This document shows positions 6,814 through 41,090 of a stretch of DNA of 51,821 nucleotides, in pieces. The translations under genes and the position numbers were made by a program. Under the pieces are notes generated by a model. It was not told where the DNA came from, ran no database searches, and saw only the letters and a program-made list of their open reading frames with translations. Source of the stretch: Shigella phage pSf-1. Every line of letters starts with the position of its first letter. Positions within the stretch are counted from its first letter, which is position 1. The stretch lies in sequence record KC710998; one strand, written 5' to 3'.

Positions 6814-6911
6814 GGATTATTATCATGTGGCGTTTGTTACTTTTGCCCTTACCTGTTATGATGGCGACCTCTATTGTATACGTTGTCATAATGAGATAAG
6901 GAGAATTTTTG

Positions 6912-23771: not shown

Positions 23772-23856
23772 AATGCTGGATTTTAATTAAAACTGAATGC
23801 CTAATACAGCGAACAGGACGCATTTTGACGAGGCATTTTTTATGTAAGGTGATTCA

Positions 23857-23985
23857 ATGGATAACTACATAAAACCGTCGCAGTGGTGCGCAAAGAAGCA
23901 AGAGGAAGCATTAGAGCGTGGCGACACTGAAACAGCAATGCACTATTTCGAAATGTACAACTTGTGGAAGGGTAGAGGTCTGTAA
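23857..23985 (+). CDS. hypothetical small protein (42 aa)
   Basis: AGGTGA RBS; MDNYIKPSQWCAKKQEEALERGDTETAMHYFEMYNLWKGRGL. Confidence 0.3.
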   Translation: MDNYIKPSQWCAKKQEEALERGDTETAMHYFEMYNLWKGRGL

Positions 23986-24215
23986 TGTTTGGAATGAGCG
24001 AGGCACAATTCAACGCTGCAAAACGCCAGGCTAAGAAGTGCGGCGAGGCAATGAAGGCTGATGTTGAAAAGCGCGGGAAGTATGTTGATGAAGTTATGAA
24101 GGGCATTATTGCCGAACATTATCAGCCAGTTGCGCCAATGCTGACAATTACCCAATTCATCTGGTTGTGTGGTTATCTTCGTGGTAGATGGGGAAGCGCA
24201 TTTGACCGCGAATGA
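23985..24215 (+). CDS. hypothetical protein
   Basis: ORF track; ATGTTTGG overlapping previous stop. Confidence 0.4.
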   Translation: MFGMSEAQFNAAKRQAKKCGEAMKADVEKRGKYVDEVMKGIIAEHYQPVAPMLTITQFIWLCGYLRGRWGSAFDRE

Positions 24216-24244
24216 TTGACAACGATTTCCTGATTGGTTAGCAT
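24216..24244 (+). promoter_or_regulatory. sigma70-type promoter (TTGACA-17 nt-TAGCAT)
   Basis: perfect -35 hexamer, 17-bp spacer, 4/6 match -10; followed by about 110 nt structured leader. Confidence 0.45.
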
Positions 24245-24361
24245 ATTCAGCGTTTACATAAGAGCGGCATTAGTGCCGAACGGGTGGCGCGGTTGCCACG
24301 AAACAACGGCGATATGCAGGTTTTTACCGTAAGACGTATTGCCTTTTTTATAGGTGTATAT

Positions 24362-24595
24362 ATGGAAAAGTACAAATTAACTTTCATGTTTAATAACATG
24401 GTGATGAATCCCTTAAATGGTTACGCTTGCAATAGCTTTTCTGTTACCGTGAATGCGGATGAAATTGAGGATGATGGTAAATTTATCCTAATAGGTGATT
24501 ACATTTATCCTATTCACAATATCAATTGCATCAAACGCGAGATCGTAAAAGATGAAATACAAGGTAAGGTTGACGATCAGGCGAATGGGGCGTAA
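24362..24595 (+). CDS. hypothetical protein
   Basis: ATG 24362 with AGGTG RBS; track ORF 24284..24595. Confidence 0.4.
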   Translation: MEKYKLTFMFNNMVMNPLNGYACNSFSVTVNADEIEDDGKFILIGDYIYPIHNINCIKREIVKDEIQGKVDDQANGA

Positions 24596-24737
24596 TTGCT
24601 CGTCATGTAGACAGAGTTTTGAATGTGAGGTTGAGGCGCGCGGAGAGCTTGAGGCGGCAGCAAGAGCAAAAGAGTTGTCCGGCGCTAATCAAGACACTCA
24701 CCAGTTTTCAATAGATCTTGTAAGGAAAATATCATGA
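24552..24737 (+). CDS. hypothetical Cys-containing protein
   Basis: ORF track; overlaps previous ORF, start uncertain. Confidence 0.3.
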   Translation: MKYKVRLTIRRMGRNCSSCRQSFECEVEARGELEAAARAKELSGANQDTHQFSIDLVRKIS

Positions 24738-24973
24738 GTTCTGTAATTATTGGTTTGGTTGCTTTAATCATTGGTGTTCTAATCGGCTTTGTCGCTGTAT
24801 CTTTCGTTGTGGCTGTTGGTGTTCGCTATAAGTCAAAAAAAGGTGAATTTGCTTTAGCGTTTTGGGATGAAGAGCAGAAAGTTTGGCAGGTTCGCGGTCA
24901 CTATTTATCAATCGGTGGCAGGATTCACAGCACTATGAAAACAAATCCAGAAAAAGTAAAATACAAGTATTGA
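24734..24973 (+). CDS. small membrane protein
   Basis: N-terminal TM helix VIIGLVALIIGVLIGFVAVSFVVAVGV; AAGGA RBS. Confidence 0.45.
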   Translation: MSSVIIGLVALIIGVLIGFVAVSFVVAVGVRYKSKKGEFALAFWDEEQKVWQVRGHYLSIGGRIHSTMKTNPEKVKYKY

Positions 24974-24980
24974 CCAACTA

Positions 24981-25002
24981 CCCGCCAAATGGCGGGTTTT
25001 TT
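24981..25002 (+). terminator. rho-independent terminator followed by TATAAT promoter-like element
   Basis: CCCGCC-aaat-GGCGGG + T6; TATAAT at about 25020. Confidence 0.55.
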
Positions 25003-25053
25003 ATTGCCTGCAATTTGTCTATAATGAGGCTTTGTTATAAAGGAGGGCGCATT

Positions 25054-25574
25054 ATGGCTAAAAACGTTGAGCCAGCAGTAAAGGCTTGCAATTTTAAAAA
25101 ACTATATAATAAGCAATATGGCGATATAGCAAAAATGACAAAGGCGCACAAGTACACGCCGGAACAGGTATTTGATCTGGCTGTTCGTTACTTTACGTGG
25201 GCTGAGGAAAACCATATACAGGCTGCGGAAACGGCATCCTTTCAGGGTGACGTATACGAAAGCAAGATTCACAAGCCGCGCGTGTTCACCTTAAACGGAT
25301 TCCGATTATTCGCTGGCCTTTCTGCCTCCGTACTTGAAAAATGGCGACGCGAGCAGGATTTAGCGATGTTATGGACTTTATCGACGGCGTTGTTTACGAG
25401 CAAAAATTCCAGCTTGCCGCAAACAATATTGTTAACGCCGGATTCATTGGTAAGGAGATCGGCATTGAAAAGCCAGCCACCGTTACCATTGAGAATAACA
25501 CAAGCGCCAGCGTTGACGCTGTAACGGCGGAGGAAGTCAAAGAGGCGGTAATTGACATTCTGGAGAAGATATAA
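25054..25574 (+). CDS. terminase small subunit (apparent frameshift near 25357)
   Basis: N-terminal part ...KPRVFTLNGFRLFAGLSASVLEKWRREQ in one frame, C-terminal part GFSDVMDFIDGVVYEQKFQLAANNIVNAGFIGKEIGIEKP in another (track ORFs 24883..25524 and 25341..25574); AAGGAGGG RBS. Confidence 0.55.
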
Positions 25575-27142
25575 TGCTGATTTGGGAAGACTTAACAGCG
25601 GCGCAAAAGCGCGCCGTTAAGGAAATGAGCGAATATTCATTCGAAAAGATGATCCGCATTTGGTTTCAACTTCTCCAGGGGCAAAGGTTCTTGGGAAACT
25701 GGCATTTCAGTTACCTATGCAGCGAAGTTGAAAAAATCATCAAAGGCGAGTCACAGAATGTAATTTTCAACATAACGCCAGGCAGTGGTAAAACAGAGAT
25801 ATTCTCGATCCACATGTCACCTTATGCGTCATTGAAAAGTAAGAAGGTGCGAAATCTTAATCTTTCGTTTAGTGATGGCCTTGTCCAGCAGAATAGCAAC
25901 CGCATCAAAGAGATTATTGGTTCTCCAGAATGGCAGGAGCTATGGCCTGGAAAGCTGGCAAAGGCGAGCGCAAAGGATTTGATTGTAACAGATGGCGGCA
26001 AGGTTAAATTACAAGTCAACTCGCGTTCTATTGGTGGTCAGGTTACTGGTCTGCGTGGCGGATACATGGACGATGGATTTACTGGTATGCTGGTTCTTGA
26101 TGATCCAGACAAACCGGATGACATGCTTTCTAAGGTGAAGCGCGAAGCCGGACACATGCGCCTAAAGAACACGGTGCGATCGCGTCGAATGAAAGACACT
26201 ACGCCAATTGTGATGGTTCAGCAACGTCTACACGTCAATGATTCAACGTGGTTCATGACAAACGGCGGTATGGGCGGCATCCAGTTTAAGGTGGTAAGTA
26301 TTCCGGCGCTCGTTACTAAGGAATACCGCGAAACGCTTCCTGATTGGTTAAAGCCTGAGTTTGATCGCGATGTTTTGTCCAGTAAGCCAGTGATGATTGA
26401 TGGTGTTGCTCATTATTCGTTCTGGCCTGCTAAGGAAAGCGCGGAGGAATTACTTGCACTTCGAAATGCTGATCCGTACACGTTCGCCAGTCAGTATCAG
26501 CAACAGCCTGTTGCGCTTGGTGGTAACGTGTTTAAAACAGAGTGGTTCCAGTATTACGGCAGCAGCGAGAAATGCACGCTACCAAAACCGGATCGCTTTG
26601 AATATACATTTATCACGGTTGATACCGCGCAGAAAACAGGTGAGCTTAACGACTACTCCGTGATCTGTTATTGGGGGATGTATAAAGATCGTGTCTACTT
26701 CATTGATGGCGTTCGCGGAAAATGGGAAGCACCGGACCTTGAGACGAATTTTGTTGCATTCGTTAATCAGTGCTGGAAGCGCAATAAAGAATGCGGAACG
26801 TTGCGAAGGATTCATGTTGAAGATAAATCATCTGGCACTGGCTTGATTCAGAGTGCAGCGAAAAAAATCATGATCAAGATCAATCCCGTTCAGCGCGATA
26901 AAGACAAGGTTACGCGAGCAATGGACGCAGCGCCAGTAATGCGCGCCGGACGCGTAGCACTTCCAGAATCCCATCCTATGCTGGCTGAGATACTAGCTGA
27001 AGTTGCGGCGTTTACATTCGATGATAGCCATCCTCATGATGATATTGTTGATAACATCATTGATGCGGTTAACATTGAAATGAACATGGCAGATGATCCG
27101 GTTGGAAGAATGAAAAAATTGGCAGGTTTGCGGAACAAATAG
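25574..27142 (+). CDS. terminase large subunit
   Basis: Walker A ITPGSGKTE, 522 aa, follows TerS. Confidence 0.7.
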   Translation: MLIWEDLTAAQKRAVKEMSEYSFEKMIRIWFQLLQGQRFLGNWHFSYLCSEVEKIIKGESQNVIFNITPGSGKTEIFSIHMSPYASLKSKKVRNLNLSFSDGLVQQNSNRIKEIIGSPEWQELWPGKLAKASAKDLIVTDGGKVKLQVNSRSIGGQVTGLRGGYMDDGFTGMLVLDDPDKPDDMLSKVKREAGHMRLKNTVRSRRMKDTTPIVMVQQRLHVNDSTWFMTNGGMGGIQFKVVSIPALVTKEYRETLPDWLKPEFDRDVLSSKPVMIDGVAHYSFWPAKESAEELLALRNADPYTFASQYQQQPVALGGNVFKTEWFQYYGSSEKCTLPKPDRFEYTFITVDTAQKTGELNDYSVICYWGMYKDRVYFIDGVRGKWEAPDLETNFVAFVNQCWKRNKECGTLRRIHVEDKSSGTGLIQSAAKKIMIKINPVQRDKDKVTRAMDAAPVMRAGRVALPESHPMLAEILAEVAAFTFDDSHPHDDIVDNIIDAVNIEMNMADDPVGRMKKLAGLRNK

Positions 27143-29257: not shown

Positions 29258-30370
29258 ATGAAGGCAAAACAAAGATTTGATAGCGTCCAGGTTAAGGCGC
29301 ATTTTGATGATAATGGCTTTTTAGTGGATCGCCCAATTGTGGCGCGAATTGGTTTGCAGGAGTACCGCACACCGTATGGAATCAGGCGAGAGTTCCGACC
29401 AGCGTCAGAAGTGTTTAAGGCTGATTCGCTTGCTACGTTCGCAGGCAAGCCGATCACTATCGGTCACGTCACAGTGACGCCAGATAATGCGGATCAGGTT
29501 GTTGTTGGTTCATGCGCTGGCGCTGGTGTTCCAAATGGGATTGGCGTTGAAGTTCCGTTAAGCATTTATTCAAAGCGAGCAATTGAGAGCGCAAAAAAGA
29601 AAGACACGGCGGAAATTTCAGTTGGTTACACATCAATTGATATTGATAAACCAGGTTGGGGCAATAATAAAACTGGCGATTACTTGTTTGAGGAAGACAT
29701 TAAGGAAGACTGGAAGCCTGATTCTCCTGATTGGGTTAAATTTGACGCCATTCAGACGAATATCCGTGTTAATCACATTGCGCTCGTCTTTCGTGGTCGT
29801 GCTGGCATTGCCAAATTAAATCTTGATAGTGAACAGGATTTTCCGTATAGTGACGAGGTTCTAAATGACAAAGGAGATGAGGAAATGACAGTAAAAATTA
29901 AACTTGATGGCGCGGTAGAATTTGATGTTCCAAAGGCCGTTGCTGATCATATTGAGGCGTTAAAGGCAGATGCAAAAGCTGCAACCGAAAAAGCTGATGG
30001 CCTTGAGGCCGAGCGCGACGCCCTGAAAACTAAAGTCGATGGCATTCCGGCGCAGATTGCAGAAGCTGTTAAGAAGGCAAAGACTGACGCAGAAGAACAC
30101 GCCAAGCTGGTTGCAGATGCAACTGAAATTGGCATCAAGTGTGACGGCCTGGACGCTAAAGCGATCAAAGTTGCTTACGTCAAAGAAGTCACTGGCGCTG
30201 ATATTTCAGAAAAAGCCGATGCATATATTGAAACAGCTTTTGACCTTGCGAAGCAGTCTGATAAAATGGCGGCGCAGCGTAAATCTGTTAAGGGCGATTC
30301 TTTCGAGTCTGGCAAGAATGAAAAAACCGACTCCCTTGATCCGACTGCGCGTTTGAAAAAACTTAAATAA
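29258..30370 (+). CDS. scaffolding protein / prohead protease-like
   Basis: C-terminal Ala/Lys/Glu/Asp-rich predicted coiled coil; position before capsid genes. Confidence 0.45.
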   Translation: MKAKQRFDSVQVKAHFDDNGFLVDRPIVARIGLQEYRTPYGIRREFRPASEVFKADSLATFAGKPITIGHVTVTPDNADQVVVGSCAGAGVPNGIGVEVPLSIYSKRAIESAKKKDTAEISVGYTSIDIDKPGWGNNKTGDYLFEEDIKEDWKPDSPDWVKFDAIQTNIRVNHIALVFRGRAGIAKLNLDSEQDFPYSDEVLNDKGDEEMTVKIKLDGAVEFDVPKAVADHIEALKADAKAATEKADGLEAERDALKTKVDGIPAQIAEAVKKAKTDAEEHAKLVADATEIGIKCDGLDAKAIKVAYVKEVTGADISEKADAYIETAFDLAKQSDKMAAQRKSVKGDSFESGKNEKTDSLDPTARLKKLK

Positions 30371-31374: not shown

Positions 31375-31392
31375 CACAAAATTATGTTGCAC

Positions 31393-38882: not shown

Positions 38883-38907
38883 AAGCCGCCTTTGTGCGGC
38901 TTTTTTA
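38883..38907 (+). terminator. rho-independent terminator
   Basis: AAGCCGC-ctttgt-GCGGCTT + T6. Confidence 0.55.
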
Positions 38908-38940
38908 TTGATGATACAATGCACGAAAGGAGGTGCAATT

Positions 38941-41019: not shown

Positions 41020-41046
41020 GTCGCGCGTTGCGCGGCTTTTTTTTTG
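41020..41046 (+). terminator. rho-independent terminator
   Basis: GTCGCGC-gtt-GCGCGGC + T9. Confidence 0.6.
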
Positions 41047-41090
41047 CCCGTATAATTCAACAAATCAAATAGCACAAAAGGTGAAAAAGC

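Follow-up and report, generated by a model that had tools for sequence, protein, structure and literature searches.

The T1-like phages form a classic and abundant group with therapeutic uses, and very little is known about their transcription programme. One short intergenic gap in the genome of Shigella phage pSf-1 raises the question of whether it encodes a functional RNA and, if so, how this RNA acts. The window analysed here is the whole 51,821-nucleotide (nt) stretch of DNA in record KC710998, representing a Hanrivervirus-like phage of the family Drexlerviridae, subfamily Tempevirinae; its region 23800-24800 is 94-96% identical to Henu8, haarsle and herni. The element in question lies within a 146-nt gap between open reading frame (ORF) 23985..24215 (phrog_303) and ORF 24362..24595, about 0.8 kb upstream of the gene for the terminase small subunit TerS (ATG 25054), and upstream of TerL (25574..27142). 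A preliminary description, made from the sequence alone, had pointed to a sigma70-type promoter and a structured leader at this place, and had regarded the leader as a candidate attenuator or small RNA. The present analysis found that the gap carries a new family-wide structured RNA on a conserved host-type promoter. This RNA is a promoter-proximal leader or small RNA outside all described families, and its most conserved part is formed by two short covarying hairpins together with the single-stranded 5' end that directly follows the promoter.

Architecture of the leader

The leader is untranslated, evolutionarily conserved and 111 nt long, one more than the 110 nt first assigned to it. The promoter and the parts of the leader are listed below.

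24216..24221, + strand: -35 hexamer TTGACA, abutting the stop codon TGA (24213-24215) of the upstream ORF
24230..24237, + strand: spacer motif CTGATTGG, family consensus CTGAnnGG
24239..24244, + strand: -10 hexamer TAGCAT, 17 bp after the -35 hexamer, family consensus TANNNT
24250..24252, + strand: predicted transcription start (G/C/G), 6-8 nt after the -10 hexamer, placed from sigma70 geometry
24251..24264, + strand: single-stranded 5' motif CGUUUACAUAAGAG, consensus CGUNNACANA(A/C)GAG, with invariant or near-invariant columns in alignment A4 and also in A6 and A8
24265..24278, + strand: hairpin 1, CGGCA UUAG UGCCG, stem covarying, loop unconserved
24279..24283, + strand: linker AACG(G), conserved
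24284..24299, + strand: hairpin 2, GUGGC GCGGUU GCCAC, 5-bp stem covarying, loop semi-conserved as (G/A)CG(A/G)U(A/U)
24300..24307, + strand: linker GAAACAAC, single-stranded, with AACAACGG conserved in the subfamily
24308..24343, + strand: hairpin 3 (P3), 24308-24316 paired with 24335-24343, inner helix 24319-24321 paired with 24326-24328, conserved 3' internal loop CCGUAAGA
24344..24349, + strand: run of six U (U6), forming with P3 a 3' end like that of an intrinsic terminator

The 5' module consists of the single-stranded CGUNNACANAAGAG, which makes up the 14-nt 5' end, hairpin 1, AACG and hairpin 2, and covers the first ~55 nt of the transcript. Across the family the architecture reads TTGACN-17-TANNNT, CGUNNACANA(A/C)GAG, hairpin 1 (4-5 bp with a variable loop), AACG and hairpin 2 (5 bp with the loop (G/A)CGRUW). 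The conserved unpaired bases are CGU, AC, GAG and AACG, plus CG in loop 2. Free positions break up the conserved ones in the 5' end (CGU-NN-ACA-N-A-M-GAG), leaving no contiguous conserved stretch of 7 nt or more.

Two further pairings involving the 5' end were considered and rejected. A small 5' hairpin, CUCGU...ACGAG, can be drawn only in the leaders of Nouzillyvirus and Braunvirinae and is not family-wide, and the long-range base pairs between the 5' motif and the CCGUAAG loop, as seen in the minimum free energy (MFE) fold of a single sequence, are not upheld in relatives, where variation in the 5' part is uncompensated. By eye only, the hairpin 2 loop GCGAUAG resembles the ops element GGCGGTAG.

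Covariation, strand and non-coding nature

In an alignment of 11 leaders from Hanrivervirus, Warwickvirus and Henuseptimavirus, the promoter and the unpaired segments are highly conserved, and compensatory changes occur in both short hairpins and in the terminator stem. When nine of these leaders were folded together with RNAalifold, the consensus consisted of three hairpins followed by the U-run, alternative pairing being absent. Structure prediction and covariation analysis, which had been proposed as checks on the leader, thus yielded three hairpins with covarying stems, but placed the strongest conservation in the 5' module and not in the terminator hairpin to which attention had first been drawn.

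For hairpins 1 and 2, pairing was counted in alignments A6 and A8, both fitted to the model. In A6, 91.6% of cells were paired, against 61% in shuffled controls and at most 44% in slid controls, in which the partners were moved by 1-3 columns; the corresponding values for A8 were 98.1%, 69% and at most 52%. Changes on both sides of a pair were found in eight of the nine pairs in either alignment, namely in all four modelled pairs of hairpin 1 and in four of the five pairs of hairpin 2. The lower stem of P3 was followed in A9, an unfitted MAFFT alignment of 12 leaders, where 97% of cells were paired and five of nine pairs had changed on both sides. The controls for A9 were taken over all 11 pairs (the lower stem and two inner ones), with 95.5% paired, compared with 86% after shuffling and at most 58% after sliding.

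Counted over all stems, wobble pairs appear as G.U in 32 cases and as A.C in 6, which favours an RNA of the + strand. The leaders of relatives differ by insertions and deletions that are not multiples of three and share no conserved ORF, which marks the region as non-coding.

Distribution in the Drexlerviridae

A covariance model of the 58-nt module, R1, matched once in the window (24245-24303, 56 bits) and once in T1 (64 bits), where the homologous element sits between ST58 and ST57. Matches were obtained in 69 of 69 Drexlerviridae loci, made up of 37 IMG/VR loci that a DNA pattern scan had brought up and all 32 loci taken from the phage collection, with one strong match per genome. All lineages sampled have the element: T1, Tlsvirus, Rogunavirus Jk06, Braunvirinae, Nouzillyvirus, Webervirus, Kyungwonvirus and unclassified Drexlerviridae. 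Its strand is that of the genes throughout, and its distance upstream of TerS ranges from 0.4 to 1.1 kb. Searches for loci with the upstream ORF and with the TerS alignment gave 9 and 4 loci, respectively, and the diversity came from BLAST against the phage collection and from the DNA pattern scan. By BLAST, the intergenic element matches 128 phage records. In many of these, homology breaks off precisely where the U-run ends, so the element is a module in its own right, separate from the downstream gene. What lies downstream also differs among lineages and includes tRNA genes. In PH1062 (locus L043, 985-1165) the gap nearest to TerS is occupied by a terminator and by AT-rich sequence in which the motifs TTGATT and GATTCGATT recur, and the leader element lies two genes upstream, at 469-526.

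A scan of 185,579 bacterial and archaeal genomes returned eight pattern matches, all of them negative with the covariance model. R1 found no match in three non-Drexlerviridae phages with distant TerS and scored at most 6.4 bits anywhere in HK022, and E. coli genomes contain no similarity to the element. No relevant Rfam match was obtained at gathering scores for the whole window, nor at E values up to 10 for the region and for the leaders of T1 and Cronobacter phage CS01. ARAGORN predicted no tRNA or transfer-messenger RNA (tmRNA) in the window; the tRNAs of relatives lie downstream of the element, not inside it. The element is undescribed in Rfam and in the literature searched. A second copy, comparable to the pair putL/putR, was considered at 6841-6888 on the - strand (15.9 bits, E ~0.03-0.05) and rejected: this match has only the linear motif CGUAUACAAUAGAG and no stems, and is probably due to chance.

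Promoter and predicted transcription start

The -35 and -10 hexamers and the 17-bp spacer are located exactly where the preliminary description had placed them and are kept in relatives. The arrangement TTGACA-17-TAGCAT scores 10/12 in a promoter scan, having the near-consensus hexamers and the 16-18 bp spacing of sigma70 promoters. Matches of 9-10/12 are by themselves unremarkable, as 11 were found in 10 kb versus 17 +/- 4 expected, whereas the composite TTGAC-N-TANNNT-N(5-8)-CGTNNAC has a single match in the window versus 0.02 expected. The TTGAC, the spacing of 17 (18) bp and TANNNT are retained in subfamilies with diverged flanks (Tempevirinae, Tunavirinae, Rogunavirinae, Braunvirinae, Webervirus, Nouzillyvirus and Kyungwonvirus). 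TTGAC occurs in nearly all lineages, with TTGCAT in Braunvirinae, and the CGU motif stands 6 nt from the -10 hexamer in all lineages listed except Warwickvirus (5 nt). The literature searched contained no mapped promoters for these phages.

The promoter spacer contains a conserved CTGAnnGG with the variants CTGATTGG, CTGAGCGG and CTGACCGG, which in Braunvirinae adjoins the -35 instead of the -10 hexamer. We infer that its last TGG supplies the TGn of an extended -10 element in several lineages; the motif could also be a site for binding of a regulator. The T1 promoter at 30319, with CGTAAAC after its -10 hexamer, was examined as a second example of the arrangement. The homologous promoter in the window is without this motif, and the CGTAAAC in T1 is therefore a coincidence.

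The terminator-like hairpin and the variable 3' part

The 9-bp hairpin with U6 (24308-24349) right before the ribosome-binding site (RBS) of ORF 24362, noted at the outset, is present and conserved. Its arms, 5' GGCGAUAUG (24308-24316) and 3' CGUAUUGCC (24335-24343), form nine pairs, two of them G.U. Folded alone, P3 has an energy of -11.7 kcal/mol (z = -2.6) in the window and -15 kcal/mol (z = -4.0) in Henu8, within a range of -11.7 to -21. The stem is G/C-rich at its base, where the four pairs are three G-C and one G.U in the window and all G-C in Henu8, and U6 follows directly, giving the GC stem and U-run characteristic of intrinsic terminators.

This 3' part varies within the family. Leaders of the window's type have P3 with the CCGUAAGA loop and, after it, a U-rich run that varies in quality. 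The final hairpin of the T1, Tlsvirus and Nouzillyvirus leaders has a 5-bp stem and a loop ending in CCGUAA, and the RBS comes directly after it with no U-run. Webervirus lacks P3, and a short U-rich stretch and the RBS come after its hairpin 2, with the start codon 15 nt after the 5' module. Since T1, Tlsvirus, Nouzillyvirus and others lack the U-run, termination is an addition of one clade, and the 5' module is the conserved core.

In at least seven lineages the last hairpin is followed, after a few nt, by one or two tRNA genes (Arg-CCU, Arg-UCU, Ser-GCU). All eight of the tRNA genes viewed in Drexlerviridae loci (Ser-GCU, Arg-CCU and Arg-UCU) lie in the leader, after the last hairpin and before the RBS. 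They are found in the loci L030 (1551-1638), L085 (1233-1320), L037 (1397-1472), L038 (1365-1440), L044 (982-1056), L045 (1081-1158) and L087 (1198-1275). A cut by RNase P at these tRNAs would free the leader as a separate RNA. In Tunavirinae leaders (T1, which is locus L029, 7689-7712; L030, 1500-1523; L055; L085) the last hairpin is immediately preceded by another one, with the loop AUAGUGGUUAA; this loop is like a tRNA D-loop, and the hairpin may be a tRNA remnant. The leader of Cronobacter phage CS01 (locus L041) is unusually long, at ~330 nt, and gives, at 1005-1198, sub-threshold matches of 22-27 bits (E 1e-4 to 7e-4) to the permuted and alpha tmRNA models of Rfam. ARAGORN detected no tRNA or tmRNA in it, and the stretch may be a decayed tRNA-like insert.

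Downstream genes and the TerS boundary

Between the leader and TerS the window has the following features.

24352-24356 (RBS AGGTG), ATG 24362, to 24595, + strand: first downstream ORF, 77 aa, no family match
24552..24973, + strand: two further small ORFs belonging to the same transcription unit, 61 aa (phrog_2919, CxxC) and 79 aa (DUF7299, transmembrane)
24980..25002, + strand: strong intrinsic terminator closing the unit, followed by the promoter-like TATAAT (25020-25025) and the TerS ATG (25054)

No promoter was found after P3 for the three small ORFs (24362-24973) in the window, and because of this they would be expressed by read-through only. Nearly all lineages have a strong terminator (ACCCGCC...GGCGGG with a T-run) and then a conserved ATGCCTGCAATnTGGTATAAT, promoter-like and of the extended -10 type, directly upstream of TerS. 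This arrangement occupies 24980-25054 in the window and is also seen in loci L001, L012, L029, L035, L036, L038-L043 and L045-L047. Other late modules likewise show a terminator followed by a promoter-like -10 (repeat family D19). In the terminator-promoter composites at 38883-38928 and 41020-41064 the stem provides a -35-like TTGYGC, and TACAAT or TATAAT stands 17 bp further on. The idea of the 'transcripton' was reportedly proposed for T1, and the terminator-promoter composites fit it.

At ~25354 the window has a 1-nt deletion relative to Henu8 (CGCGAG-CAGG versus CGCGAGCCAGG) that splits TerS (ATG 25054 to 25574) into two frames. Either a sequencing error or a genuine frameshift could account for it.

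Proposed mode of action

The reading we prefer, to which as a joint claim we give about an even chance, is that the promoter yields a terminated ~100-nt RNA together with a read-through mRNA, that the 3' hairpin acts as a fixed throttle and that the 5' module is a platform for recognition by a factor. Host sigma70 RNA polymerase would start at ~24250-24252 from TTGACA-17-TAGCAT, and the first ~55 nt of the RNA would fold as the 5' module. In the window phage and its subfamily the RNA would continue via AACAACGG into P3-U6, a putative terminator 2 nt before the RBS of the first small gene. A substantial fraction of transcripts would end at ~24346-24350, giving the ~100-nt RNA, and the remainder would serve as mRNA for ORFs 24362-24973, ending at the 24980-25002 terminator. 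P3-U6 would thus be a fixed and leaky throttle, not a switch. The 5' module, apart from the terminator, would bind a trans-acting factor (a phage or host protein, or RNA polymerase) that sets elongation and termination, processing or stability. The spaced conservation of unpaired bases, the fixed spacing from the promoter and the semi-conserved loop 2 argue for a protein or polymerase platform rather than a seed for base pairing.

Several points weigh against this reading. The interior of P3 measures 18 nt with a 3-bp inner helix, larger than the compact loop (~3-8 nt) of efficient intrinsic terminators; the terminator scan did not list P3 because its 18-nt loop exceeds the limit of 8, and the efficiency of termination is therefore uncertain. 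As T1, Tlsvirus and Nouzillyvirus have no U-run, there would be no discrete short RNA across the family unless processing makes its 3' end. Alignments A6 and A8 were fitted to the structure of the model, which inflates their percentages of paired cells, a concern lessened by the slid controls and by the unfitted A9 and A7. The folding energy of the whole leader is ordinary (z = -1.3 to -1.5), so that the evidence for structure is covariation and not energy. The start site, termination and the read-through ratio are predictions, and no candidate for the binding factor was identified, the neighbouring proteins matching only families of unknown function.

Alternative explanations

Were the ~100-nt RNA itself the product, its single-stranded 5' end would serve as a seed for pairing with host or phage mRNAs, as in a trans-acting small RNA (sRNA) of the Hfq type; it would then be comparable to the 5'-seed sRNAs or to StxS, which is made from the lambdoid late promoter. 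The strong promoter of its own, the 5' single strand at a fixed distance from this promoter and the 3' hairpin with U6 after an A-rich linker all agree with such a role. The family also has three routes to a defined 3' end, namely the U-run after P3, a GC hairpin with a U-rich tract in some Webervirus, and a tRNA with its RNase P cut, and the downstream genes are interchangeable. However, the interruption of the conserved 5' positions suits recognition by a protein better than a seed, the leaders of T1, Tlsvirus and Nouzillyvirus run straight into the RBS without a terminator, and the phage genome shows no enrichment of the seed complement (8 matches versus 4.3 +/- 2.1 expected). We consider an sRNA of this kind unlikely.

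Rather less probable is processive antitermination of the HK022 put or lambda nut type, in which the module binds its own polymerase and makes it read through P3-U6, the terminator at 24980 and those of the late operon. The module stands right after a strong promoter at fixed spacing, as does putL (PMC9378689), and its two hairpins are parted by conserved unpaired bases, while a linear motif followed by a hairpin with a semi-conserved loop is also the layout of nut. Packaging and structural genes begin shortly downstream of the element in every lineage, and terminators of the same orientation follow in the window at 24344, 24980, 27170, 30903, 32446, 35091, 35813, 38883 and 44545. On the other hand, TerS has in almost all lineages its own conserved promoter-like element (TGGTATAAT type) after a strong terminator. 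Because TerS and other late modules have such terminator-promoter arrangements, the late genes do not obviously depend on the leader promoter, which weakens the case. There is, moreover, one copy per genome, the stems have 4-5 bp compared with the two long stem-loops of put in ~70 nt (PMC9378689), and R1 is negative in HK022; the transcribed strand has no boxA, and no N- or Q-like protein was identified. It is doubtful that the nascent module stays on the polymerase, alone or with a small phage protein, and confers terminator resistance into the packaging and structural operon. If it did, a virulent phage family with no known switch of this kind would have one resembling put or nut.

A third possibility, improbable in our judgement, is a passive 5' untranslated region (UTR) whose hairpins stabilise or help to process an mRNA and tRNA precursor, the hairpin and U-run merely lowering expression. 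It is true that in every lineage the element is the 5' leader of ORFs or tRNAs, that tRNA genes prefer this site, suggesting a stretch that is untranslated and strongly transcribed, and that the Webervirus leader is the 5' module alone with the start codon 15 nt later. Stabilising hairpins, however, must be at the extreme 5' end, and here they are preceded by a conserved single strand of 14 nt; the invariant unpaired bases, retained across phages whose TerS are ~45-55% identical, exceed what a generic stabiliser needs.

The preliminary description had offered a short terminated RNA or an attenuator for the downstream genes. A short RNA accompanied by a read-through mRNA is the natural expectation, but a switching attenuator is not supported, as the consensus fold of nine leaders contains no alternative pairing. 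In a classical attenuator or riboswitch, alternative folds or the translation of a leader peptide would decide whether P3-U6 forms. The terminator-like hairpin does lie directly before the RBS, and the window has a GUG-started frame of 19 codons ending at a UAA in the hairpin loop; this frame is absent in most relatives, Warwickvirus having a mini-ORF and most lineages none. The consensus contains three hairpins only, and the long-range pairs of the MFE fold are uncompensated in relatives. No riboswitch family matched even at E = 10. As Rfam gave no match and the leaders conserve neither a leader peptide nor an alternative pairing, the element is not a classical attenuator, a role that we regard as highly improbable. 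What the preliminary description observed is borne out, and its interpretation is partly supported.

A DNA-level element (replication origin, pac site or operator) might be suspected from the motif starting at +1 and containing GTnnAC, palindromic in fixed positions, from the conserved spacer CTGAnnGG and from the nearby terminase genes, but it is hardly credible given that compensatory changes keep the hairpins and wobble is strand-specific, that the terminal repeat of the T1 record (the packaging start) is 7.6 kb away, that GC skew is unchanged at 24.2 kb and that there are no iterons and no extended dyad symmetry. An operator over +1 could coexist with the RNA.

Relation to the 21-nt repeat and to known systems

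A 21-nt intergenic repeat, aaATAGCACnnnTTGnTAAAA, has been reported for TLS, T1, Rtp and Rogue1, with ~18-21 copies per genome (PMC11447400). The TLS genome paper lists three predicted sigma70 promoters in addition to this repeat, the leader promoter not being among them (PMC11447400). The leader element and the repeat are both conserved and non-coding, the leader element differing in being single-copy and in having a canonical sigma70 promoter. The repeat is the same as the 'cassette' of the preliminary description, to whose genes the leader had been contrasted. The window contains ~19 copies in the form of ~22-nt AAATAGCACTTTTTGTTAAAAC, in many cases with a GC hairpin and CATAATAA after it, at the positions given below.

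2775, 5298, 6318, 17693, 18156, 19373, 20596, 21888, 23230 and 27134: cassette copies, + strand
9561, 12257, 12922, 14971, 15477, 16354, 31384, 35145 and 45806: cassette copies, reverse complement

Their orientation matches that of the genes at ~2.8-23.3 kb, and the late-region copies at 31384, 35145 and 45806 oppose the late genes of the + strand. In T1 the -10 of the promoter-like element of TerS overlaps a copy of the cassette.

The leader element is a single-copy, family-wide and strongly covarying RNA on the best host-type promoter of the genome, at the border between the early small genes and the packaging genes. It is a candidate regulatory RNA and a way into gene regulation in T1, a possible entry for an RNA-family database and a marker of an insertion site of tRNA genes.

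Among known systems, the element in the window and its subfamily is like the Hfq-dependent sRNAs with a 5' seed, such as RybB and OmrA/B, in having its own promoter, a single-stranded 5' end, hairpins and a terminator with a U tail. It is unlike them in that the 5' positions are non-contiguous, the terminator is missing in many members and no target is known. With lambda nut (boxA and boxB) it shares a conserved linear motif followed by a short covarying hairpin with a semi-conserved loop, but the loop has 5-6 nt, (G/A)CGRUW, and is not the GNRA-like pentaloop of boxB. A boxA (CGCUCUUA-like) was sought and rejected: the transcript has CGUNNACANAAGAG, and CGCTCTTA lacks conservation and in the window is confined to the opposite strand. 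We know of no N-like protein in T1-like phages.

The put elements of HK022 are ~70 nt long, consist of two long irregular stems and occur twice per genome, putL lying right after its promoter (PMC9378689). The leader element likewise is a promoter-proximal, cis-encoded RNA with two stem-loops and unpaired junction bases, which in put are functionally important. It differs in having stems of 4-5 bp after a single strand of 14 nt and one copy per genome, and R1 is negative in HK022.

In the lambdoid PR'-tR' system (6S RNA; StxS in Stx phages) a sigma70 promoter is followed by an intrinsic terminator within ~100-200 nt (PMC7547250). The similarity lies in a constitutive promoter with an early terminator upstream of packaging and structural genes, from which a short RNA would arise and whose downstream genes would need read-through. 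Unlike PR'-tR', no Q homologue was identified, and the initial transcribed region is without a conserved -10-like pause element. In contrast to that system, it is the structured module that is conserved here, the U-run is specific to one clade, and TerS has a promoter-like element of its own.

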